NCBI GenBank assembly: GCA_000004985.1
Contig: GG738859.1
Length of the DNA stretch: 64,000 nucleotides
Origin: Naegleria gruberi
Lineage: Eukaryota
Strand: one strand, 5' to 3'
Positions 5,324 through 23,521 of this stretch are shown piece by piece. The position numbers and the translations under genes were made by a program. Numbering within the stretch: the first letter of the stretch is position 1; every line of letters begins with the position of its first letter. The notes beneath the pieces were generated by a model, which did no database searches, was not told the DNA's origin, and saw nothing but the letters and a program-made list of their open reading frames with translations.

Positions 5324-8300
5324 ATGCCACCATCACGATTTAGAAAGGTAATTGAGGATGATGAAGAGGAAATTCCTACTACAAGAGAGGATGTGGAGAG
5401 TGAACAAATCAAAGGTAGGAAAACTGAGAAGAAAGGAGGAATCAAAAGGAAAATTGTAGAATCTGATGATAGTAGTAGCAGTGAAGATGAGTTGGACGAA
5501 AGGCTTGAGTTGACTGATGAAGACGATATCGAATCTCTTTCTTCCAGAGATTCACCTGTGGTAGAATATGATGACAATGATGAGGAGATGGAAGAATATC
5601 CACAGTATAATAGATTATTGGAGAGTAAGTTTGCATACTAGCAATTCATATAAAATCTCTTATATTCAAAGTTGAAAAGGCTATTCTTGATAAACTTGAA
5701 GGAAGGTCTTGTGATCAGCAATTGATAATTCACTCCATTGAGATGAAAAATTTCAAATCATACAAGGATAACACACTGGTTGGTCCTTTCACCACTGGAT
5801 TAAATTGTATCATTGGATCTAATGGATCTGGAAAGAGTAATATTATCGATTCGATTTGTTTTGTGCTTGGATTTGAGTCTAAAGAGTTAAGAGCTAAGAA
5901 TCTAGACTACCTCATCAATGATCAGTGTTCATCTGATGAAGAGTCATTTGTCAAAATCAACTTTAATGTGATGAATGGTAAGAATGATTGTTTCAAGCAG
6001 TTTAGTATTCAAAGAAAGATTAAAAGAAATGATCACACAAGCTCCTACCATCTCTCTTCACCAAATGAGGAATCCAAAAAGATAACAAAAAAACAAGTGA
6101 GGGAATTACTGAATGAGTATGGAATTGACTTTGATTATCCTGATAGATTTATTGTTATGCAACATAATACCATAAAGATGGTAAAGCAAAACCCTTTAGA
6201 AATGCTGTTCCATCTTGAAAAATTATTTGGTACTGATAGAGTTCAAATTGAAATTAAGCAAGTTCAGGAAGATATTACAAAGCTCAGATCCGATATTGAA
6301 ATACATGAGAAAGAAAAGAATGATTGTGAAAAGGATCTAGAGTTATTAAAACCTATAGTCGAACACTATCAAAACTTTCAAAAGTTAGAAAAAAAGGTGG
6401 AGGAGACAAAAGCATCCATAAAAGAGAGTGAGCTGAAATGCCTAACATTCAAACTAGACAAAAGCAAGAGGGAGCTAAAGTCAATTACTTCTGAAATATC
6501 TTCTTTAGAAAGTAATCGTTCAAACTCAAAGATAGAAGAACAGCAACTGAATGAAAGTACTCAGAAACAAGTAGAGAAAATGGACACCACAGAAAAGGAA
6601 CTAGACCAGATAAAGAAAGTCACATCCAAGATTCAAAAGAATCTACTGAGGGTAAGACTTGAGAATGATTCCTACAATCAAAAAGTTCAGCACTTTGAAA
6701 TGGAATTAGAAAGAACCTCAAAGGAGTCTATTCAATTAGGAGAGGAAAAGAACGATTTGAATGTAATGAATTGTCATACAGAGGAAGATATTAAGTATTT
6801 AGAGAATTGCATTAACAGTCTTGAAAATGAGATTAATAGATTGACATCAAACATAGATGATGAATCTCAACAAATATTGATAGATTTGCAAAGAGAATTA
6901 AACGAGATAGTAACAAGTTATCGTTATACAGCATTAACATCTCGTAGTGTTAAATTAAGGGAATTGGAGGAGCAGATCGAAATTTTGAATCAAACATTTG
7001 ATCAAAAACAAAAAGAGAAAGTGGGCTTAGAAAATTATATGGAAGAAATTTCTGAATTGAAGAAATTAGCAGACTCAGAAGCCAGCATATTAGGAGATAA
7101 CTTGAAGAGAGTCCAAGAATCAATAGAACTCAAAAAGAAGCAGAGAATCAAGATAGAAGATGAAATATTTGACTTAGAAACATCCTCGATTCAAAAAGAG
7201 GAAGTTAATTCTCTTTTTTTAGATACCATAAAGAAAATTAGATCAGGGATAGATGGATGTTTTGGAACAATTCCAGAGATTTATAGAATCACTGATCAGA
7301 AATATGCAGTTTCCGTAAACTCAGTGCTTCATCCTTATTTAAAGAATACAGTAGTTGTTTCAAGCAGAGAAGTGGCATTGAAGGTAGTGAAGTTTTTTGA
7401 AAATGATCGTGCAGGATTGGTCAGTTGTGAAATTCTAAATGAGCTGAAGTTGTTGCCAAACCAATCCAGCACTAATCCTTTAGAATTGAAGCCACTTATT
7501 GAAGTTCTGGAATGTGAGGCTCAATACAGACCCTTACTAGAAAAGCACACCCAAGGATGGTTCATTACTGATTCGATAGAATGTGCAATGAAATACTCAT
7601 ATCATAACGGCAAAAGAAGAAATATTGTTACTCTCGATGGAAAGATATTTAAAAGCTTTGGAGAAATATCTTGCCACTATTCCAAAGATACTACCCCTCA
7701 CCAGATCAGTACTCAGTATTCTAAACTCAATACAAATTATTCAGATCATAACAAAGACATTGAGTATTTGTCTATTTTGAAAAAAAAGTTTAAAGATCTA
7801 GAGGAAATATGTGAAAGTCTCATCATGTCAATGAATGACATTAAGCAATCCATATCAGAAAAGGAAGTATTAACAAGAAATTATCAATCCCAAATCAAAA
7901 AAATTGGCTCTTCACTCTCAACTCTTTCCAGAAAATTGATATCTATCAAGAAGGATTTAGAGAGCAAACAGGAAACCTTCAAAAATACTATTTTAGCTCC
8001 AACTGAGGAAGCAGAGTTATTAGAAATAGAGACAATCAAGAAAGAATTAGAAATGAAAATCCATACTATTGAGAGTGTCGATAACAGTGGAAATTCATTG
8101 CCGAACCTCAAGAAAACCTTGTCAGAAAAACAAAAGGAGCATACTGTACTCAACAAGTTAAAAGAAACACAAAGCAAGAGATTGAATCAAATATCAGCTC
8201 TATTATCAAACCTTGCAGCAAAAAGAGAAAAATACACTAATGAATTAGATATTTTCAGAAAAGAAAACAATCAAGAGGAATTAGATTCATTAGAATCAGA

Positions 8301-9204
8301 AGTAGACTCTCTGAAAAGGCAAAAAGGTAAACTCGAATCAAAAAAAGAGGATTATTGTAACAAATTAAAAGAATTCAGACGAAACATTAAAAAATTAAGC
8401 CAAATAATTAATGAGAAAGACCTTCAAATCTCTAGAAAAGTGCAAGATAAGGAAAAAATCCAAGAGGATATCGACGAGCTAAAGTTGTCCATTTCTAAAA
8501 TAGCACAAAGTAATATCTCTTTGAAAGTAGACACAAAACTAGACTTGGAATTAGAGGAAAGGAGAAGGCTCAAACTGATATCTGAGCTCAAGCACATAAA
8601 TTCAGAACTGGAAGGTATACAAGATAGTGTGGATAAAAATTGTTTAGAAAAACAATCAACAGCCAAGAAAAAGCTGAAATTCACTAATAAGAGGCTCAAT
8701 AGTATCAATCAAAGAATTGAGAGCCTCGAACTATTGGAGTCAAAATTTCTTACCTTACGATATGAATTGTTTCACAAGGTTATTTCCAAAATTAATGAGA
8801 ACCTCTCTCAAATATTCAGAGATTTGAATAACAACTCAAACTGCTACATTTCTTACTATGAAGACAAGAAGACATTATTTGAAAAGGGTGTCAATATTTA
8901 TTGCAAGTACGATTCAGAGTGGAAAGAGTTTAGTAAGCTGTCTGGTGGTCAGAAAAATCTGGTTTGTTCTGTTCTTTCTAAAGCGCTAATGAGATGTTTT
9001 TCAACCAGTATTTGTATCTTTGATGAATTATGTAGCAGTTTAGACACCATCAATGTAGAGAAATTAGCCAAGCTCATCAAAAGCAGCTCTCTCAAAACTC
9101 AGTTCATTTGCATATCATTCAAGTTTTACGAGAAGGCAGATCATATCATTGGAGTATACCACCAAAATGGTGTTTCTTGTACTGTCCCATTCTCTAATAA
9201 ATAG
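5324..9204 (+). CDS. SMC-family ATPase, condensin type (SMC2/SMC4-like), with probable acidic N-terminal exon (5324..5624) joined by a 47-nt intron (5625..5671) to the main exon (5672..9204)
   Basis: Main exon: LIIHSIEMKNFKSYKDNTLVGPF...CIIGSNGSGKSNIIDSICFVLG (Walker A). Long coiled coils. Hinge: GTIPEIYRITDQKYAVSVNS...VVVSSREVALKVVKFFENDRAGLVSCEIL. C-terminal LSGGQKNLVCSVLSKAL...ICIFDELCSSLD (signature plus Walker B). The first ATG in the main frame (5743) would remove the conserved N-terminal strand, arguing for the spliced 5' exon MPPSRFRKVIEDDEEE...YNRLLE (acidic, as in SMC4 N-extensions). The track start 5722 is TTG. Confidence 0.55.
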
Positions 9205-9207
9205 AAT

Positions 9208-12200
9208 TTATTGTACATTAGTTAGTAAATCCCTGATGTTGTACTTCAAGGAGAACAGGTTTTGTTTGTTCTCTATTAGCAAACCAAGACCATCCACCCA
9301 ATTATTGTAATCTCGCTCATCAAAAGTAACAAATTCCATCTTTTTCTTATCAGTAATAATTATGAGCGAGAATCCACCTTCAAGATTTTTGTTAGTTGAT
9401 TCTTTGCTCTTGGAAACCTTGTCAATATGTTCAACCTTCAAAAACGATTCTGGAACTTTCTTCTTATTGTCTCTTATTAATATTCTCGTAAACTCCTGCG
9501 ATAAGCATACGTGCCTTAATACATATTCCGTATTGGACTTTTTCTTATGCAATAGGGTACCATTACACATGAACTGGAATTTATCCAGAACAAATTGAAC
9601 ATCCTCCTTACTCAAAGGTTTTGAATTTGGCCCAAACAATTTATATTGTTTGGATGCCAATAATCTTGAAATGTTTGATGAGGCAACACCAACAACACCA
9701 CCATTTGATGGATTAGCAACGGTTGTGTTGGTAGAGGTATTGGTAGGCTTTTTAGGTGTTGTGGTTTGAGGAGCTTTTTGAGTGGTTTCAGTTGTGACAG
9801 GTGTTTGATCCTTTGTTATTTCTGGCTCATTTTCATATTGTTCTTCCTCACTACCCTCCAGTGAATTATTTGAGTTTTCAAGAGTATGATCATCATTCTC
9901 GTGTCCCTCGTTTTCTCTCTCTGCTAAATCTGTATAGAAATCTTCATCAAAGTCCTCTAAAGAATTAGGATCCTTATTTCTCATATACATGCTATAGTAA
10001 CCACTCTTAGAAACTGGAGGAGGATTTGATTTCTCGTTCTTACTTGGCTTGATCGATCTCATTATAATATCTGCCCCACTGTTCTTCACATTTTCTACTG
10101 CTTGTAATTTGAGCTCCAATCTATGTCTTAAATGTTGTCTCTGAGCTCTTACTTGTGATATTTTGCCTGTATATGATGCCTCGATATCTTCTAAGTTCTT
10201 CTTCATGGCAGCAAGTTGTTTCTTGAGTGTCATTGTTGAATTTGTCAAGTTATTTAATTCTTTCTCTATCACAGAAATACTCTTTTCCAAAGGTTTAGTG
10301 ACTGAATCATAATCAGCAATAGTTTCTTTTACATCCTCCTCTATTATAGCTAAAAGGTTATCAATTTCTTGAACTCTTGTTTCTATTGAGACTTTTTCTT
10401 TTGTAATTTCACTTTCGAATTGTTTCTCTTGATTTGCAAGACTTTCAATTTCCCTTTCAAGGTTTTCTTTTTGGTTTATCATTGAATCAATTTCTTCGTT
10501 CGCTTTTTCTAACTCATCCTGCTTTTCTATTTTTTGTTTGTTGATTACCTTGACTTGGCTTTCAACATTATTGCTGGCATCAACATATTGAGAAACCTTG
10601 TCACATTTGCTTGTATCTACAATTCTTTGGATAACATCTTTGATTTGATAATAAGATCCAACCAATGCCTCACACCTAACAAATCTTTCCTCTGTTAATT
10701 TCATTTCATCATCTGTGCAATTCTCGATTTTATCTGCCACTTGTTTCTCAACTTCCTCTTTCTCCTTGTTATAACTCTCTTCGATTTCGTTCAATTGCGA
10801 AACAATTGATTCTATTTCTTCGTCACACTCTTGTCTATCTCTGATTAATCCTCCTATTTGTTGCTCTAATTCACTGACAATATTTGAAAAATGACCAAGT
10901 CTTTCTAATTCTCCCCTTTTTCGCTCTGAGTTTTCCCGCTCAACTTCTCCAATTGAGGATGAGGATATCTTTTCTTTGGCAACCTCGACCAACTTTTTAT
11001 CTTTCTCAAGTTTATCCCTTATCATGGAAATGTACTCTTCTCTTTCCTTTGATCTCTTTCTCTCAATGTCTATAAATGATTTAGATTGGTTAATATAGAG
11101 TTTCTTGAATGTATTGACTATAGACTCATATGGCAATTTGAAACCGATTTGATCAAATTCTATTGCTTCCCCAAGAAAATTGGCATTGAATGAATCAACA
11201 CACTGTCTTAGTTGTTGGAAATCAAGTTCTTCAGAAGAAAGTTCTAAAGCATGAGCAAGAATAGCCTCTGTTTCCTCTATTTCAATAGACATGGTATGTA
11301 CATAATTCTCAAGAGCTGAGAGTTTTCTCAATTCATTTTGAAGGTTTTCAATCCCGCTCTCCTTCTTGGATACATATTCTTGTTTTGCAGATAGGTTCTC
11401 TTGCTCCAATTCCTCAAGAATGATCCTCTTTTCGTCTATTAACTCACAAACTTCTTGTCTCTTAGATTCTGCATATACTTTCTTGGAATTAAGCTCGTCT
11501 ACAGCTCTATTATATTCAAACTTCAAGTCTATCAGAAATATCTCTAAAGGAAACTTTTCTCGTAATCTTTCTGTCCTTAAATAAATTTCTTTTTCTCTCC
11601 TTATTAATGTTGTGAGATTCTTTTTTTGGTCATCAGTCAATGTAGATCCTTCCAAAATCATTGAATTAGTTGATATTTGGGCTAACCACTCTGATTCATC
11701 ATTCTCCAGCTCTTTCAGATAACAATCAATGTCACTAATTTTGCTTGCAATCCTCTCAATGGTTGCATTAACTTCTATTAGCTGGTCTCTCTTTTGAATC
11801 AATTTGTCATCAACAGGATTTCTCCTTAAATCTGTTGGGATAGATAGGAGTGAATCCCTCTCTTTGATTAAATTGTTCTTTTTTTGCTCGTTTTGGATTA
11901 TTAGGTCTTTCAATTTTTTCTTTTCTCTTGTTAAAATCTTCAACTCTTTATCTTGTTTTTTCTGTAAAGTGTCAATCTTTAAATACATATTTTCGAGAGA
12001 GGTTTGTTTTTCCTTAATAATTATCTTTTCTTTTTCACATTCTTCTCTCTTTTGATTTTTGATTTCTCTTTCTTTTTGATCAAAAATTGAGATGGCTTTT
12101 TCAATCTTAGAAATTTGAGAGCTAACATCCTCTAACCTGTCGCTAACTAGTCTTTGTCTGTCTAATTCTAATGGGTTGTGGTCTGGTTGTGGGGCTATTT

Positions 12201-12642
12201 TAATAGATTTTGGAGTTACTGACTTTGTTTGAGGAGGAGGTCGGGTTTTTTGTGGTGGAGAATCCTTTACTGCGACTGGTTTGGGGGTTTTCTTTGTAGT
12301 TTCAACTGCTTCAACCTTGTTACTTCTTTTAAATACAGGCTCTTCTTCGTCATCACTTCCATCAGAAAATCCAGCTTCCTCCAAATCCTTTTCAATAGCT
12401 TCAAGCAATGACCTTGATGGAGAAATAAGTATACTATCCTCATCTAAAAGTTGTTGAGCCTCCTTTAGAAGCACTTCCCTTTCACTAATTCCTTTCCGAT
12501 TAGAAGTTTTTTGTTTTTGGTTGGGTTCTTGTTGCCTCAACCTTTCCTTAAAATCAGCAATTTCATCCTTATCTGATGATGCAAGAGGAGACGATTGCTT
12601 TCCACCACCTCTCATTGATTTTGGTTGTTGTGTTGGTGGCAT
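9208..12642 (-). CDS. large coiled-coil protein (1144 aa) with C-terminal PH-like domain
   Basis: ATG at 12640-12642; continuous ORF. More than 800 aa of heptad-rich K/E/Q sequence. C-terminal region KQYKLFGPNSKPLSKEDVQFVLDKFQFMCNGTLLHKKKSNTEYVLRH...GGFSLIIITDKKKMEFVTFDERDYNNWVDGLGLLI resembles a PH/GRAM-like fold. Family not identified. Confidence 0.45.
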   Translation of the reverse strand: MPPTQQPKSMRGGGKQSSPLASSDKDEIADFKERLRQQEPNQKQKTSNRKGISEREVLLKEAQQLLDEDSILISPSRSLLEAIEKDLEEAGFSDGSDDEEEPVFKRSNKVEAVETTKKTPKPVAVKDSPPQKTRPPPQTKSVTPKSIKIAPQPDHNPLELDRQRLVSDRLEDVSSQISKIEKAISIFDQKEREIKNQKREECEKEKIIIKEKQTSLENMYLKIDTLQKKQDKELKILTREKKKLKDLIIQNEQKKNNLIKERDSLLSIPTDLRRNPVDDKLIQKRDQLIEVNATIERIASKISDIDCYLKELENDESEWLAQISTNSMILEGSTLTDDQKKNLTTLIRREKEIYLRTERLREKFPLEIFLIDLKFEYNRAVDELNSKKVYAESKRQEVCELIDEKRIILEELEQENLSAKQEYVSKKESGIENLQNELRKLSALENYVHTMSIEIEETEAILAHALELSSEELDFQQLRQCVDSFNANFLGEAIEFDQIGFKLPYESIVNTFKKLYINQSKSFIDIERKRSKEREEYISMIRDKLEKDKKLVEVAKEKISSSSIGEVERENSERKRGELERLGHFSNIVSELEQQIGGLIRDRQECDEEIESIVSQLNEIEESYNKEKEEVEKQVADKIENCTDDEMKLTEERFVRCEALVGSYYQIKDVIQRIVDTSKCDKVSQYVDASNNVESQVKVINKQKIEKQDELEKANEEIDSMINQKENLEREIESLANQEKQFESEITKEKVSIETRVQEIDNLLAIIEEDVKETIADYDSVTKPLEKSISVIEKELNNLTNSTMTLKKQLAAMKKNLEDIEASYTGKISQVRAQRQHLRHRLELKLQAVENVKNSGADIIMRSIKPSKNEKSNPPPVSKSGYYSMYMRNKDPNSLEDFDEDFYTDLAERENEGHENDDHTLENSNNSLEGSEEEQYENEPEITKDQTPVTTETTQKAPQTTTPKKPTNTSTNTTVANPSNGGVVGVASSNISRLLASKQYKLFGPNSKPLSKEDVQFVLDKFQFMCNGTLLHKKKSNTEYVLRHVCLSQEFTRILIRDNKKKVPESFLKVEHIDKVSKSKESTNKNLEGGFSLIIITDKKKMEFVTFDERDYNNWVDGLGLLIENKQNLFSLKYNIRDLLTNVQ

Positions 12643-16154: not shown

Positions 16155-16848
16155 TTACAGTTTGTGTGCTGTCTTATGTTCACAGACGTACTTAATTTCC
16201 TCAACTCTTTCTAAGAATGATTTATAGAAACTGTCAGCAATATGTAAGAATGGTTGTTCTACATTTCCATCATCAGTATTTGTGGCAGTTTGGAAGAATT
16301 CCAATCCACATTCCCTAGCAAATTCTTCACCTTGATGTCTAGTTACCTTTTCAAAAGCACCTAGGTCACTCTTATTTCCTACTAATACACCTAATAGTGA
16401 TTTGTCGTGCTTCTTTTGACTGCTGTTACTAGTTCTTACACTCTTACACAATCTGTACCATTTTGTTAAATTTGTAAATGTTTCTGGATTGGTTGCATCA
16501 TAGACAATAATAAAAGCATTCAAACCATCGATCTAATTCCGATTATTAATCAATGATTAAAATTCCAACTGAATTCATTGTACATACATATTCGTTGTAT
16601 GATTTTTCATAAATTGATGATCCACTAATATCGAAAATAAATAGTTCTACTTGATTTTCCTTTGGAATTGAATCATGTTGTTGTTCATTTGTAACAACAG
16701 GAACATCAATTGTTTTTGTATATAAATCAGCTCCAATTGTCATTAAATATTGATTCGGAAATGTTCTTTCTTTGAACATTTTGATAAGACTTGTTTTTCC
16801 AACAGTGGAATCTCCGAGAATACCAACTTTACATCTGAGTTTAACCAT
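16155..16848 (-). CDS. IFT27: IFT27 / RABL4-like intraflagellar transport GTPase; 2 exons (16588..16848, 16155..16532), 55-nt intron
   Basis: MVKLRCKVGILGDSTVGKTSLIKMFKERTFPNQYLMTIGADLYTKTIDVP...VELFIFDISGSSIYEKSYNEY|IDGLNAFIIVYDATNPETFTNLTKWYRLCKS...LLGVLVGNKSDLGAFEKVTRHQGEEFARECGLEFFQTATN. Compare human IFT27 MVKLAAKCILAGDPAVGKTAL...VELFIFDSAG...LCLVYDVTNE.SF.N..KW...LPGVLVGNKTDL. The track start (16941) is TTG; the intron donor gtatgt sits directly after the EY codon. Confidence 0.65.
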
Positions 16849-16986
16849 CTTTATGTTCCGTTTAAAATGTTTGTTCGATTTTTTCTGTAAGGTTTTTGTT
16901 GTTTTACTTATTGTACTTTGTATGAGGATTTTTGGCGCCAAAATTAAATACTGTTAGTTGTTGGTTAATTTATTCGTGATTTCTTT

Positions 16987-19900
16987 TTATTTCTTCTTGA
17001 TTATTTCTTCTAGATCATAGAGTGCTTCCTTAGCACCAATACGTTTCTTTGGATTGGAGACTAGACATGATTTGATAAGGGATGAAATTCGTTTAGGTAT
17101 GTTTTTCAATTCGAATTGATAATCCATTTCCTTGACGAATCTATCTTCATTTTGACAAATAGCAATCACTGCAATACTGGCATCCATTTCTAATCCTAAT
17201 ATCAGACCTGCCATTAAGATTCCAAATTGGAAAATGTCCAGTCTATCTGTAACAATATTTTGCGCTGTTGGATTTTGGAAAAAGTATTCAGGTGCAATAA
17301 ATACGCAATTTGTTTTGGAATTTTTCACTTGAGCTTCTTCAAATGATGAGAGAAGAACCTGTTCAATGTCATCATGATAGAGAATTGTTTGAGTATTAAC
17401 ATGACAATGAACAATATCTTGTGTGTGTAAGTAATTGAGGGCTTCTGCTATTTCTGAGGCTAATCTACAAACTTGGAGAGTTGTGAAGATTGTTGGAGGG
17501 GAAGATGAAATACTGGTCACCACTGATAGGGTATTCTTATTATCTTCTTCATCGAGATATGGCTTTCTTTCAGTATTGGAAAGAGAATTGATATTTGAGG
17601 AATAGGATGGAGTTAAATCACTAACAGAAACGTTATTGGAACGAGATCTCTTATATAAGATGAAATAATCAAGAGTGTTCATTTCATAGAATGGCTCTAC
17701 TAAACAGTGCATATTGATCCATGAAAATTTGTGAATGACAGGGGCTATGGATTTTGTGTAATGACACGAATTGAACATGGAATCAATAATATTAAATCCA
17801 TTAAAATAAAAATCAATATTATCAGTTCCATTCGTGACAACATTATTGATATCATCCATATAATCATCGCAGTATGGTAACTTTACAATCTTTGGTAAGT
17901 TCTTTTGTTGAGAGTTAGTTTGTGGTACAATAGTCATACAAGAATTAATGGGTAAGCATGTTATCTTGAAAGTATGCTCAGAATTTCCATATTTTCTTCT
18001 TTTAGAAGCAAGTAGTATTTCCTTTCCTCTCTTTGATTCCATAAATTTAGTAATTTTCAATTTTTCTATACTAATAAATTGATTAATGGCCCTCATAGAA
18101 AAAACTTCTGGAGTAAAACCTAACTGTGTCAGTGAGAGTACTCTTCTTGATGGTTTGTACAAACCCTGTACCTCCATATTATCTAGTGCAGAGAAGGAAT
18201 CCTCTTGATCTTCAATGTCATCCAAAGGGGTTGGAAGTCTGAGGGCAACCAGATTGTGTTTTTTAGAACTTTCATTGGTTTGGTAAGGAGCTGAAGATCC
18301 TTTAACAGGAGAAAAATTAGATAATGAGTTGATCTTTTTCAAAATATCTAACTTGAAAGAACCATATTGAAGTACCATCATTTTCGAATAAATAGACTCT
18401 GCCTCCTCTTCAGTCATGGTAAATGCACTTGTTGATTGTGAAGAGCGTTGAAACAGGCTTATTTGCGTATTATTTGATTTATCAGTATCCCAATATATGT
18501 TTTGTACTCCTCTTCTCAAAAGCATTTCAATATCTTCAATTGTTTCATAGAGGTCTTTGGATAGTATTCTCTCCTCAGGATGCACTGTCAACATTTGATT
18601 AACAATAATATCGACCAATCTCTCGTATAAATCTAAAAACTCTGTATCATATCTATAGTTCAATAAAATCATCTCTCTAATGTACACTCGTTTGGCATGA
18701 ATAGAAGTGGCATTAATGAGAGTTTCTAAAGACAAATCTAAACCTAGTATTTGGTAGAACAGTATACCTAGTGAATAAATATCTGAGGAATTGATAAGTG
18801 TCTCAGATATCGATTCCTTAATGTTAATACTGCAAACACTTTCCAGATCATTGTCACTTGAAATGTTTAAATTCTGAGAGGCCCATATAGGCGATGAACT
18901 CCTAATATAAATATTCTTTTTTGGACCATTAGTGATAAGATCTTTTAGCTCAGGGGAGTGGTATTCTGTAATTGATTTTTGATCGAATGAATATCTATTT
19001 GGGAATAATTTAAAATCGTTAAGGAATTTGTTTCCAGTAATCATAAATGTTAAATGGATAGAACCTGATGGATTGGGTATGGAAGCACTTGGAGATGGAG
19101 ATCCACCTTGTCCATCAATGGCAACACAAGAACTCCTCCTAAAACTTTCTGAAGAAAGGGCAGCATCTGATAATAAATGTTGAGTTGCCATACTTCTTCT
19201 GATATTTTCACTCAGACTGGATGAGCCTGCTTTTTGTAATATGGAAATTTTTGGAAAAGGATCTGTCAATATGACATCATAAGTTTGTTCAGTTGAAGTT
19301 TGACTGGTCATAGAATCTGATCTCTTTTTTGAAAAAAAGGATCTTGTTACTCGATTATTTGTAGTATGTGGTACTAAGAATATGTTTTCAGGTTTTAAAT
19401 TATGATGGGAATATCCCAGTTGATGTATCTGTACAACAGGAGCTAATATTTGTTTGAATAGCAAGATAGCTTCCAGTAATGAGAGATTTTTCCCCAATGT
19501 CTTTTGTTTTGAGATTACTGAGCTTAAATTTCTGTCAAAGTATGGCATGACAAGCATGACAAGAACTTGTTGATTTCCAGATGGAGAATTGAAAAAATTC
19601 TTATCCACATAAATCTTGAAAAACTTGTCATCCACCTTCTTTTCATCTCTTCTCGTGTTATGAAAAGTCATATACCAATAATTTTTCAATTCTTCAATAT
19701 ATCTTTCCAAAGGGAAAGAACCTGATTGATGAGAGTAGCTGTACCATTCATTAATTGTGCATTTGAAGAATTTTACAACAACTTGTCTACTGTTTGATGA
19801 ATATAAAGAAGATGAAAATTGTTTAGCTTGTTGGAGATTGTTTTGACTGTTTGTAAATTCCGATGTTCCACAAGATTGTTTTTTGTGTGCAACTTCTGTT

Positions 19901-20409
19901 GCTGAATAGGTATTTCCATGTTTTTCATCCAATCGTTTTAATTTAGTATACTTTTCGCAAATATACCACAAATTTGCATTTGGCTCCTCTTGGGGTGGTG
20001 AATTATTGGTCCACAGTTTCTTGTTTCTTCTCCTCACAACGACATGATCCATATGGAAGGTAATTTTAGAGTTGAGAGATTTAAAAACATTGGATTTCTC
20101 GCTTATTGTGTGGTGATGTGTTTCACTTGATGATTCCAATGCACTAAATTTTGAATCGAGTGCAGCTGATGATGATGGTGATGGTGACTTGAATGATTTC
20201 CTTCCATTACTTGTTGTTGAAGGAGAATGTGATGATGATTGTGGTTCCATGAATTCTGACTCATCGGAGGTGCCCAACCAATTCTCATAATCATTTCCAT
20301 CATCACTCCAGCCATCATCATGAGGAATAAATGTCGTTTCACTCGAAGAACTATCAATATAATCAGAGAATGAATTTGCAATTGCAGGAGAGGATTTATT
20401 TTGTCCCAT
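16987..20409 (-). CDS. large (1140 aa) protein with N-myristoylation motif (MGQNKSS) and two degenerate protein-kinase-like domains (probable pseudokinase)
   Basis: ATG 20407-20409; single ORF. Domain 1: ...LGYSHHNLKPENIFLV (HRD -> HHN), ILTDPFPK (DFG -> DPF), YHSPELKDL, SDIYSLGILFYQIL, HPEERI. Domain 2 near the C-terminus: LHTQDIVHCHVNTQTILYHDD, FIAPEYF, TDRLDIFQFGILMAGLILG. The catalytic Asp is replaced in both domains. Confidence 0.5.
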   Translation of the reverse strand: MGQNKSSPAIANSFSDYIDSSSSETTFIPHDDGWSDDGNDYENWLGTSDESEFMEPQSSSHSPSTTSNGRKSFKSPSPSSSAALDSKFSALESSSETHHHTISEKSNVFKSLNSKITFHMDHVVVRRRNKKLWTNNSPPQEEPNANLWYICEKYTKLKRLDEKHGNTYSATEVAHKKQSCGTSEFTNSQNNLQQAKQFSSSLYSSNSRQVVVKFFKCTINEWYSYSHQSGSFPLERYIEELKNYWYMTFHNTRRDEKKVDDKFFKIYVDKNFFNSPSGNQQVLVMLVMPYFDRNLSSVISKQKTLGKNLSLLEAILLFKQILAPVVQIHQLGYSHHNLKPENIFLVPHTTNNRVTRSFFSKKRSDSMTSQTSTEQTYDVILTDPFPKISILQKAGSSSLSENIRRSMATQHLLSDAALSSESFRRSSCVAIDGQGGSPSPSASIPNPSGSIHLTFMITGNKFLNDFKLFPNRYSFDQKSITEYHSPELKDLITNGPKKNIYIRSSSPIWASQNLNISSDNDLESVCSINIKESISETLINSSDIYSLGILFYQILGLDLSLETLINATSIHAKRVYIREMILLNYRYDTEFLDLYERLVDIIVNQMLTVHPEERILSKDLYETIEDIEMLLRRGVQNIYWDTDKSNNTQISLFQRSSQSTSAFTMTEEEAESIYSKMMVLQYGSFKLDILKKINSLSNFSPVKGSSAPYQTNESSKKHNLVALRLPTPLDDIEDQEDSFSALDNMEVQGLYKPSRRVLSLTQLGFTPEVFSMRAINQFISIEKLKITKFMESKRGKEILLASKRRKYGNSEHTFKITCLPINSCMTIVPQTNSQQKNLPKIVKLPYCDDYMDDINNVVTNGTDNIDFYFNGFNIIDSMFNSCHYTKSIAPVIHKFSWINMHCLVEPFYEMNTLDYFILYKRSRSNNVSVSDLTPSYSSNINSLSNTERKPYLDEEDNKNTLSVVTSISSSPPTIFTTLQVCRLASEIAEALNYLHTQDIVHCHVNTQTILYHDDIEQVLLSSFEEAQVKNSKTNCVFIAPEYFFQNPTAQNIVTDRLDIFQFGILMAGLILGLEMDASIAVIAICQNEDRFVKEMDYQFELKNIPKRISSLIKSCLVSNPKKRIGAKEALYDLEEIIKKK

Positions 20410-20885
20410 CCTTTTTCTAGACTTTCCAATTAAATTGTGAGGGCTGGTTGTTGATCAATTTTTTTGTTTGTTCAAAATACATTCTTGTTGTTAATTCAGT
20501 AATGATCGGTGATTAGTAGTGGTTGGATGACTAGACAGTATGACATGACTTCTTCATCACCTTGTTCATGATTTCAAAGTTGTGAAATAATCATTATACA
20601 GAATTGATTCCCTCTTCAAAGTTGAATCATCAATAAAGGAGGCTATTTGTTATCACACTTGAATGTTATTGGGAGATAATTCTGAATTAATCATTTCATT
20701 TTCCACTTTATAATCTCTTCTTGGAAATATTATTGATTCAGATTACGTTATTGCAATATTAGTCCCAATCTCCCGCCAAACTTGGTTGCACTGGAAAGTT
20801 TAAAAAAATAAAGCAAAAAAATACAACAACAGCTCTCAGTAGCTGTTGAAACAAGGAATTTAATTTATTGAGGAGTATATAAGAA

Positions 20886-23521
20886 ATGTCGTTTTTAAAT
20901 CCTCCAGAGATGTCAATTATTGTTACTCCAAGTTTAGATGAAATAGAACAGAGTGATTTGGAGAGGAAACAATTGGAGCAAGAGGAAATTGAAGCTGAAC
21001 GACTTCTTCCCGAGAGTTTTGATTTCACCAAGCTGAAGAAGCAATTATCATCGGAAAATATTGCAAAGAAATCCTTCACTGTGGATCCTGAGCAATTGAT
21101 AAACACTGTAACAATGTTACTTGAGACAGTGGAAAAGCAGGAAAAGAATATAAGGTCACTAGCAAAAGCAGTCGCTCAAAAAAGCGATTTTTCATTGAGC
21201 AGGCAGTCATCATTTAATACCGGTGTTATGATTACTGATCCACCAAAGAAGGATCTTCCATCCTCCAGACCAACCACTCCAAAAGTTGTACATAAGGAAA
21301 CTGTTTTTGTGAGGGAGGATGATCCTTTTATGAAGAACCAAATCCATAATTTAAACAATGAGTTTGCTATAATTCAAGAGGAATATACTCAACATGAAAC
21401 AAGACTCACAGAAGTCGAGGCTATTGTTCATGAACAATTAACAGAGGAGAAAATGAAAACTGAAAAGAAAATTGATGAAGCTAAAGAAATGATTACAGTA
21501 CTCAAATTTGACAAGGAGGAGTTGAGAAAACAAATGGATCAATTGAGACTGGATGTAAAAAAGGGATTGGAGGAAAATATTGAGTTTTTATCAAACGAAA
21601 TCAAGACACATTTTGATATTTCGAATGAAAATTTAGAAAGGCTTCAAGATGATTACAACCAAAAAATATCAGCCGTAAATTCTGACTTGGGATCCAAAAT
21701 TGTGGACATATCAAATAAGGTGGAATATAATTTTATGATATTTAAGGAACGAACGGAATCTCAAAAAAATGAAATTGAAGAACTAAAGTTCAGACTGACG
21801 AAACTGGAAGAAAATTTACTGAAAAAGATGGAAACCTTGTCAGATAAAATGGATAAGAATTTTCGATTACTGGAGAAGGATACCCTGAAAACTAACTACA
21901 TAACCAATCTGTTGTACGACGTATTTCAGCTGGATAAACATCTAATCACTGACTTGAATGATACATATGTACAGGAAAAGTTTCAAGCTAAGGAAGATAT
22001 TGGAAAATATTCCAAAATGAAAAAGGAGAAGAACAGACAAGAGTACAGAAAGATGTATACAGACATGTTAATGACCACTCCATGTTTTAAAACAATATAC
22101 GACAATTCCACAAACATTGTAAACGAGTTGAGATGGGAAACCAAATTAAGAATGGACAGAGAGGGTGACAAGGTGTTAGAAGAGTTTACTGATATTCGAG
22201 AATGTATGAAACGGTTTGTGACATTTCCAGAAGTGCGAGCAGCAATTAACGAGAATGAAATAGTGAGACAAGTAGTCAATACTGTGGGTACTCATGAAAA
22301 ACATATTGATACAATATTTACAAATTTTTTACCGAGAGAAGAGGCTTGGGAAGCCCTCAAACAAAAAGCAGATGAAAAGAATGTAGAGTTGAAAGCTGAT
22401 CGAAAGATTGTCAATGCTCTATTTGACTATTTGAACGAGAAATTGAATACTATTCTTGGGAAAACATCTACAGAAGAAATGATGGTATCTATTAAAAAGC
22501 TTGAAGAGAAAATCAAAAGTAAGGCAGATAAGCAGGAACTTATAGAAGCCCAGCAACCAATTTACCCTCCAAATATAATTAATATCGTGCGAAAGGATAT
22601 TTCTACAGAGGATCTAGTGGTAGGAATGGGTGTGAGTCAACCATGTCTCATGGCAAAAGGAGAATCCGAACAAAGTCACTCCAGTTCGTACAGATGCCTT
22701 AGTTGCAGTCGACCACTCTCTTCCAAAACGCCTTCAACAGCACCATCCGGTTCTCCTCCAAAAAGACAAAACTATTTAACTAACTTTGATCCTCTTCCTG
22801 TTCAAGCCTTAAGTGGAAATGAATCTGCTAGAGGAAAGTTGGGAACTACGTTGGGAGATCTTCAACAACAATTTCAACAACAACTTCAATTACAAATCAA
22901 TCCAAACACTAGCATTCAATCTGATAGTCCAAATACAAGTCCAAAGAAGGGAGAAAAAGAAAAACCAAACCTTATTCCACCAAGTAGCCCATCTGACTTT
23001 TTCGAAATACCCAAACTAAATTTGAAAAAAGTAATGATATCTGCAGAGTAAGTTTCTTAACACATTTTAAACTCTTACATTTAACAAGAATGGAAAATCC
23101 AATCTTTAAATATACTATTAAGAGCTCAGGTCGAAGTGCAGAAGAAGAATATGAAATGGTATCAGCAAGACGAGACAATACTGACCTTGATAAACCTCCT
23201 TCACAACTTCAAAATCAAAGAAAATCTCCAGACGATATGAGACCTAAACCACCAAAGAGTGCACCTCAAGGAGGGCAGAATAATTTTATGAGATATTCTC
23301 TGAAGAGTAATTTGGATCTTTCGAATAAAGTGCCAGGAACTGCAAGAGAAAAAGAACAGGAGAAAACATCTTCAGTAATGCCACACTCTGCAAGGCCAAA
23401 TTCTGCTAAAGAGTACAGGCTGAGAAGGAATGAAGGTCCTATACTTGTTGTAAAGCCAGCAACTGCAGCTCTGAAAAATAGACTCCCAAAGCTAAATGCA
23501 AGTCAAGCTTTAATTAAATAA
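20886..23521 (+). CDS. coiled-coil protein (~864 aa); 2 exons (20886..23047, 23089..23521) joined by a 41-nt intron
   Basis: ATG 20886. The 721-aa track ORF ends ...MISAE at a TAA that lies inside a gtaagtttcttaacacattttaaactcttacatttaacaag intron (23048..23088). Splicing gives ...MISA-E-MENPIFKYTIKSSGRS... in frame with track ORF 23090..23521. The middle is heptad-rich. There is a Cys cluster YRCLSCSRPL. No family assigned. Confidence 0.45.

Follow-up and report, generated by a model that had tools for sequence, protein, structure and literature searches.

A reading frame on the minus strand of Naegleria gruberi contig GG738859.1 (NCBI GenBank assembly GCA_000004985.1), at positions 16987-20409 of the 64,000-nucleotide window that was analysed, encodes a protein with two kinase-like regions in tandem behind an N-terminus that resembles a lipidation signal, and raises the question of what such a protein may do when the catalytic aspartate is missing from both regions. 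An earlier note on this DNA had described it as a membrane-anchored scaffold of two degenerate kinase domains with no recognizable named orthologue. The analysis presented here leans, by a modest degree, towards a signalling scaffold with two pseudokinase domains, N-myristoylated and with little or no catalytic activity, that is restricted to Naegleria-type heteroloboseans. The earlier observation is confirmed and its interpretation partly supported: the tandem pseudokinase arrangement and the absence of any named orthologue stand, while the two domains proved not to be equally dead.

The frame itself is not a chance occurrence, extending over 1140 codons in DNA of 33% GC and remaining intact across three lineages. 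The ATG of the MGQNKSS start is the first in-frame one downstream of the upstream stop codon, and the product is identical (100%, full length) to an NCBI entry named 'predicted protein [Naegleria gruberi]'. This exact match and the presence of an orthologue in N. fowleri establish 16987-20409 as a real, intron-less gene in nuclear DNA of N. gruberi.

When 1.84 billion cluster representatives were searched exhaustively with HMMER, using the single full-length protein as query, only three full-length members of the family were retrieved: the N. gruberi protein itself, a 1249-amino-acid orthologue from N. fowleri (860 bits) and a 1201-amino-acid protein from an ENA metagenome (810 bits). The three are collinear and share 43-45% pairwise identity. 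From the 810 bits of the third orthologue the score falls to 64 bits at the next match, and from there down the matches are to the C-lobes of mixed kinases, including those of a Chloroflexi bacterium, the dictyostelid Polysphondylium, a plant leucine-rich-repeat receptor kinase and an oomycete. Scanning JGI metagenomes added no further relatives; neither search returned orthologues or close homologues beyond Naegleria-type amoebae, and no named kinase or pseudokinase family fits the protein; the earlier note, too, had recognized no obvious named orthologue. Since only three members were found above a generic remainder starting at 64 bits, the family can be regarded as a single-copy orphan restricted to Naegleria-type amoebae, which agrees with the UniProt name of the N. 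fowleri orthologue, 'Putative Naegleria-specific protein'. A literature search on Naegleria pseudokinases, kinome, N-myristoyltransferase (NMT) and myristoylation found nothing on the 1140-residue protein.

The third orthologue is encoded on contig k141_1328050 of ENA ERZ27315067, where the region 2210-2320 spans its start. The start as called lies within the 3' end of the zf-C2HC gene before it, and translation from the following in-frame ATG, at 2298, gives the N-terminus MGQSKSD; the deposited gene model probably includes 29 codons too many. The higher GC content of this contig (37-41%) and its neighbouring genes, which are unlike those in N. gruberi, indicate that it represents a third lineage, at about the same distance from the other two.

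Several kinase domains are also a feature of the best non-orthologous matches. One unnamed protein carries three kinase-like domains, a Polysphondylium protein combines a Rho-type GTPase with three kinase domains, and the second domain of a two-domain match reads VHCNLKPDS. The high totals of these remote matches probably represent a sum over several domains rather than specific kinship.

Against the Pfam Pkinase profile (PF00069, gathering score 31.7 bits), the whole protein scores 83 bits over three stretches and each half exceeds the gathering score when scanned alone (39.4 bits for the N-terminal half and 49.6 bits for the C-terminal half), which bears out the claim of two kinase-like regions in a single polypeptide. 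The catalytic aspartate is missing from both regions in all three orthologues, with HHN in domain 1 and HCH, HCN or HGN in domain 2, and this absence holds on re-alignment of the two domains with MELK and CDPK, respectively, in the three species. To judge from their key residues, the domains differ in kind, domain 1 being affected by an Asp-to-Asn change only and domain 2 lacking four key residues. A recent internal duplication is unsupported: domains 1 and 2 align with each other at an hhalign probability of 52%, over αF-αI alone.

Domain 1 can be followed over a complete kinase fold. When a profile of the three orthologues (residues 140-640) was compared with one of kinases, hhalign returned a probability of 98.4% and an alignment over columns 16-278 of the kinase profile, from β1 to αI, which takes in the β1, VAIK, αC, hinge, HRD, DFG, APE, αF and αI landmarks. 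In the alignment of the domain 1 segment GYSHHNLKPENIFL with its MELK counterpart GYAHRDLKPENLLF, HRD is replaced by HHN; together with the hhalign result, this confirms the HHN and DPF substitutions that had been read from the sequence. At the DFG site the orthologues carry DPF, DPF and DPY, with Phe and Gly replaced and the Asp retained, and K213, E240 (the αC Glu), K339, N342 and D383 (the DFG Asp) are invariant in all three. The αF motif is also recognizable (DIYSLG in N. gruberi; D-I-(Y/F)-(S/A)-L-G across the orthologues), as is the Arg motif of the αH-αI region (HPEERI). An APE motif had been claimed for both domains; it is intact in domain 2, but domain 1 reads SPE at this site (18949-18957), and does so in all three orthologues. 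The glycine loop is degenerate, being DGKLGNV in two orthologues and DEKHGNT, with a single Gly, in N. gruberi. The activation segment extends to ~104 residues and a further insert of ~55 residues precedes αF; within the activation-segment insert, residues 391-450 display indels and low conservation, while 47% of the columns are invariant over residues 451-480.

Pseudokinases of the HER3 and JAK2 JH2 class can bind ATP or show trace activity. As every catalytic and nucleotide-binding residue other than the Asp is retained, domain 1 is of this HER3/JAK-JH2 type and could still bind nucleotide or have trace activity. It might even be a weak or atypical genuine enzyme, resembling HER3 or JAK2 JH2 or carrying out other ATP-dependent chemistry, which is regulated by a dead domain 2. 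The invariance of the β3 Lys, the αC Glu, the Lys168 and Asn171 equivalents and the DFG Asp in the three orthologues would suit such an enzyme, as would the GxxG remnant of the glycine loop in two of them and the conservative nature of the sole change to the catalytic base. However, that base is Asn across three lineages, DPF/DPY contains no Gly and its Pro should constrain the hinge of the activation segment, the glycine loop is reduced to a single Gly in N. gruberi and the activation segment is some 100 residues long. A genuine enzyme is therefore considered unlikely, although the possibility deserves some weight.

The kinase character of domain 2 is secure in its C-lobe, to which the Pfam match is limited (profile positions 94-258). 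The segment VHCHVNTQTIL aligns with VHKDLKPENIL of CDPK, in keeping with the earlier reading of HCHVN for HRDLKxxN. The APE motif, the αF motif (DIFQFG; D-I-(F/Y)-(Q/H)-F-G across the orthologues) and the αH-αI Arg (NPKKR) are all retained and well conserved. At the predicted β3 strand the orthologues carry K, R and K (FKITC, YRVTC and YKLTG), and no residue was assigned to the αC Glu. With its active-site residues replaced as listed in Table 1, domain 2 is predicted to be unable to coordinate ATP-Mg in the canonical manner.

Upstream of the C-lobe the assignment is less straightforward. The hhalign probability of residues 755-1140 against kinases is 99.9%, which is reliable in the C-lobe part alone; residues 755-960 taken by themselves give 0.2%. 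An AlphaFold model of residues 745-1140 was computed from an alignment of the three orthologues with 31 bacterial kinase fragments, which had been cut to start ~30 residues before HRD and so contributed no N-lobe information. In this model the C-lobe (residues 977-1140) has a predicted local distance difference test (pLDDT) score of 80-98. Further upstream, the model places strands at 785-791, 797-807 and 810-820, a strand at 900-907 (MHCLVEPF) and a helix at 913-926 (pLDDT 64-75 for the latter two), and the order and spacing of these elements are those of β1-β3, β5/hinge and αD. The αC/β4 region has a pLDDT below 50, and the β3-αC insert (822-899) and the αD-αE insert (927-964) are likewise of low confidence. 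Foldseek aligned the model over 364-385 columns with whole kinase domains. Domain 2 would accordingly consist, on the evidence of this model, of a secure C-lobe and a probable, very divergent N-lobe. Of the two kinase folds that had been proposed, the first is thus covered by a full-domain alignment and the second by its C-lobe, but the N-lobe of the second is not detected by sequence and was modelled with modest confidence. An alternative register for this N-lobe, obtained with MAFFT using whole bacterial kinases and with hhalign, places it on the FNGFNII...YLDEED segment; it was rejected as an artefact because the invariant acidic YLDEEE would sit in the hydrophobic β5 strand, and because it has no statistical support and the unbiased AlphaFold run took the other register.

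The same region could instead be read as an unrelated conserved N-terminal module (residues ~760-960) attached to a remnant of a kinase C-lobe, which would leave the protein with one pseudokinase and a half-domain. The confinement of the Pfam match to the C-lobe, the blank N-lobe sub-profiles upstream of it, the hhalign result for residues 755-960 and the different, inconsistent registers in which MAFFT and hhalign place kinase N-lobes would all agree with an incomplete domain. Yet AlphaFold, without N-lobe input, produced three antiparallel strands (785-820), a β5-like MHCLVEPF and αD in kinase N-lobe order, nearly the whole model was aligned by Foldseek with complete kinase domains, and by eye the pattern NIAPVI(H/E)KFSW..MHC(L/I)VEP resembles that of HPNIV-β4-β5-hinge. 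A half-domain is regarded as improbable, to about the same extent as an active domain 1, and two pseudokinase domains are retained as the preferred description.

The N-terminal MGxxxS motif noted earlier fits the PROSITE PS00008-type myristoylation pattern G-{EDRKHPFYW}-x(2)-[STAGCN]-{P}, as it does in the other orthologues (MGQNKSS in N. fowleri and MGQSKSD at what is probably the real start of the third). Among the 35 open reading frames (ORFs) of at least 150 amino acids in the window, the pseudokinase alone fits the pattern. The first seven residues are identical between N. gruberi and N. fowleri, while the next ~100 are almost unconserved, and the preservation of MGQ[NS]KS beside such a tail is good evidence for the importance of Gly2. 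N-myristoylation and membrane attachment of the pseudokinase are predicted from this motif. Myristate alone binds bilayers weakly, and the sequence near MGQNKSS, where the tail is acidic and Ser-rich, contains neither a Cys nor a basic cluster to supply a further membrane signal. In Euglena longa, also a discobid, experiments have demonstrated NMT-dependent myristoylation of a protein beginning with MG (PMC5869587).

The motif might also function without membrane anchoring, with the myristate inserted into a pocket of a kinase C-lobe, as in c-Abl 1b, or stabilizing the fold, as in PKA, in which case the protein would be cytosolic. Such a role would be consistent with a strictly conserved MGQNKSS followed by an acidic and Ser-rich stretch that has no Cys or basic cluster, and the kinase C-lobe of c-Abl does bind myristate, a precedent for C-lobes as myristate receptors. 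Nevertheless, Gly2 and domain 1 lie ~140 disordered residues apart, cycling on and off membranes is common among singly myristoylated proteins, and a full-length AlphaFold model from a two-sequence alignment reached a pLDDT of 27 and was not used. A purely cytosolic role is hence judged rather less likely than either of the two preceding alternatives.

The loss of the catalytic base from both domains makes a non-catalytic scaffold or allosteric regulator the best-supported role, with lipidation, membrane association, absence of catalysis and scaffolding all read from the anatomy of the protein. Gly2 would be N-myristoylated co-translationally, and the myristate would allow reversible attachment to a membrane or to a hydrophobic pocket. 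The protein would not phosphorylate substrates; instead, other signalling proteins of Naegleria would dock onto its two kinase folds or be regulated allosterically by them. Domain 1 may serve as a conformational switch through nucleotide binding, and domain 2 would combine a fully dismantled active site with a well conserved substrate-binding C-lobe. The long Ser-rich loops may be regulated through phosphorylation. Several points weigh against this scaffold model. Trace or atypical catalysis by domain 1 is possible, given the retained K213, E240, K339, N342 and D383. Kinase N-lobe sub-profiles give weak matches in domain 1 and none upstream of the C-lobe of domain 2, and the pLDDT of ~50-57 for the β1-β3 strands of the latter is modest support for an N-lobe. 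Stable membrane anchoring is doubtful for a protein that would rely on a weakly binding myristate with neither a palmitoylatable Cys nor a basic patch. Finally, the neighbouring genes in the window are unrelated and of housekeeping type, and provide no functional clue, partner or pathway.

Several known systems offer partial parallels to a myristoylated tandem pseudokinase. The tandem design resembles the JH2-JH1 arrangement of the JAKs, whose JH2 also carries HGN and DPG. However, the C-terminal domain of the JAKs is an active tyrosine kinase, whereas that of the Naegleria protein is the more degenerate of its two; the FERM-SH2 region of the JAKs has no counterpart according to Pfam; and the JAKs are metazoan and bear no specific sequence kinship to the Naegleria protein, the remote matches of which are mixed kinases. 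Domain 1 shares with HER3/ErbB3 an HxN in place of HRD and the retention of the Lys168 and Asn171 equivalents and of the DFG Asp, and pseudokinases of the HER3 type may bind ATP and act allosterically. Unlike HER3, a receptor tyrosine kinase homologue without the αC Glu, domain 1 is Ser/Thr-kinase-like (LKPEN), has kept this Glu and contains very large inserts. The N-terminus of c-Src, MGSNKSKPK, is an SH4 signal whose start is nearly identical to that of the Naegleria protein (MGSNKSKP versus MGQNKSSP), with Gly2 and Ser6 in both, but the acceptor motif is all that they have in common, since the Naegleria protein has no basic cluster or Cys, no SH3 or SH2 domain (Pfam) and no tyrosine-kinase domain.

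Plant tandem kinase proteins (TKPs) such as WTK1/Yr15, RPG1 and WTK3/Pm24 have been classed as kinase-kinase, kinase-pseudokinase or pseudokinase-kinase according to the key residues that they retain (PMC6997164). They are, like the Naegleria protein, non-receptor proteins with two kinase or pseudokinase domains in tandem. In those classified in that study, however, at least one domain is predicted to be active and the origin lies in plant kinase families, whereas in the Naegleria protein both domains are degenerate, a myristoylation motif is present and no specific similarity to the plant proteins was found. There is no specific affinity to STK40/Tribbles-type or IRAK3-type pseudokinases either, as active kinases score equally (TNNI3K 16.6, Myt1 16.0) and identity is 13-19%. 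Bub1/BubR1/KKT14-type proteins and other named pseudokinase families were considered and set aside, with no TPR or other supporting domain and no specific matches. As far as its sequence can tell, membership of the JAK, HER3, plant TKP and Src groups fails for want of an active domain, of FERM, SH2 or SH3 domains, or of specific homology.

A bolder view would see here an independent JAK-like tandem, in which domain 1 is a nucleotide switch or an Asn-based trace kinase controlled by a dead domain 2 and a myristoyl switch, and in which the DLTPSY/YLDEEE motifs and the Ser-rich activation segment provide phospho-regulated docking for a genus-specific pathway. This view is speculative and is given little credence, less than any of the alternatives discussed above.

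The pattern of conservation is strongly uneven. In the three-way alignment, 40-63% of the columns are invariant in αE-αI, compared with 0-13% in the tail and the inserts, and the coincidence of the conserved positions with kinase-fold elements and short linear motifs indicates that the protein is functional and its kinase folds preserved. Purifying selection, as it appears from the three sequences, is centred on these fold elements and on a few short linear motifs. That the frame is the remnant of a one-time tandem kinase, in decay or without function, as the lost catalytic residues, the big low-complexity inserts and the genus-restricted distribution might suggest, is scarcely credible for more than 1100 codons that are uninterrupted in three lineages only 43-45% identical and conserved in so uneven a manner.

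Table 1. Features of the tandem pseudokinase gene (positions in the window; residue numbers refer to the 1140-residue product)
Feature	Positions	Strand	Basis or remarks
Complete coding sequence, tandem pseudokinase	16987..20409	-	1140 codons and stop, no introns; ORF list, NCBI match, collinear orthologues
N-terminal MGQNKSS, predicted N-myristoylation signal (Gly2, Ser6)	20389..20409	-	Fits G-{EDRKHPFYW}-x(2)-[STAGCN]-{P}
Ser/Asp/Glu-rich tail, residues 8-105, probably disordered	20095..20388	-	Polar fraction ~0.7; 0-13% of columns invariant
Conserved basic motif SNVFKSLNSKITFHMDHVVVRRRNK, residues 106-130, ahead of domain 1	20020..20094	-	Three-way alignment; no Pfam match
Pseudokinase domain 1, residues 148-630, bilobal with large inserts	18520..19968	-	Pfam 39.4 bits; hhalign 98.4%; PDB alignment to MELK
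Domain 1 β3 Lys K213 (VAIK equivalent)	19771..19773	-	VVVKF/VTVKF/VVLKF, K invariant; hhalign to vaiK
Domain 1 catalytic loop HHNLKPEN	19384..19407	-	Asp to Asn; Lys168/Asn171 equivalents retained; aligned to MELK HRDLKPEN; invariant in 3/3
Domain 1 DFG equivalent DPF	19255..19263	-	Metal-binding Asp retained; TDPFP/TDPFP/TDPYP; hhalign position
Domain 1 activation-segment insert, ~95 residues	18970..19254	-	Ser/Pro-rich variable part, then conserved KxLNDFKxFPNR...EY-SPE
Inter-domain linker, residues 631-782	18064..18519	-	Motifs EEEAESIY, SPxxG..PYQ, DPFSxLD, SLxQLGFxPE
Probable, highly divergent domain 2 N-lobe, residues 783-926	17632..18063	-	AlphaFold and Foldseek; β1-β3, β3-αC insert, β5/hinge CLVEPF, αD; provisional
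Domain 2 αD-αE insert, residues 927-972	17494..17631	-	DLTPSY and YLDEE(E/D) invariant in 3/3; pLDDT <50
Domain 2 C-lobe, residues 973-1140, confidently kinase-like	16990..17493	-	C-terminal half, 49.6 bits Pfam
Domain 2 catalytic loop HCHVNTQT (HRDLKxxN equivalent)	17386..17409	-	Asp166, Lys168, Asn171 equivalents lost; orthologues HCNINTES, HGNISVSS
Domain 2 DFG equivalent SFE	17338..17346	-	Metal-binding Asp lost; aligned to CDPK DFG; orthologues GYD, NFD

Outside the kinase folds, short linear motifs are invariant in the three orthologues: KITFHxDHVxVRR ahead of domain 1; EEEAESIY, DPFSxLD and SLxQLGFxPE in the linker; and DLTPSY and YLDEE(E/D) in domain 2. All are candidate sites for docking or phosphorylation. 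The invariant columns of the basic motif preceding domain 1 are K110, K115, F118, H119, D121, H122, V125, R126, R127 and K130. For the linker (residues 631-782), neither a Pfam family nor, with hhalign, any kinase similarity was found.

The window is AT-rich (~33% GC) and its genes are eukaryotic, including those for an SMC protein, a PH-domain protein, PRA1, a U1A-like protein with two RRMs, an intron-split small GTPase and a DUF4795 coiled-coil protein. The small GTPase, of Ras/Roc type, lies directly downstream of the pseudokinase gene (16155-16941, minus strand), ~46 nucleotides past its stop codon. It is split between two ORFs, which match positions 1-73 and 73-160 of the Pfam Ras profile and so imply that a short intron lies near 16524-16545, and its G3 motif is DISGS, without the catalytic Gln; it may be Rab-like or IFT27-like. 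On the other side, an intergenic region of 476 nucleotides (20410-20885) separates the pseudokinase gene from a divergent gene for a 721-residue coiled-coil protein with a weak DUF4795 match (20886-23051, plus strand), and the two genes may have a common promoter region there. Elsewhere in the window, the SMC-family gene (5722-9204, plus strand) is convergent with 9208-12642 (minus strand), which encodes a 1144-residue protein with a C-terminal PH_12 domain, and the two ORFs end 3 nucleotides apart.

Pseudokinases are recognized allosteric regulators and scaffolds, and tandem kinase-like proteins such as the JAKs, GCN2 and the plant TKPs are important signalling switches. To these the Naegleria protein adds a discobid example of a double pseudokinase with a conserved lipidation signal. 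As the pathogen N. fowleri possesses it and humans have no orthologue, it may be of use as a lineage-specific marker or as an entry point into Naegleria signalling; for now it is valuable chiefly as a catalogued and better-annotated orphan. It is a new, lineage-specific addition to the broad and well known class of pseudokinases, a tidy example of that class rather than a surprise.

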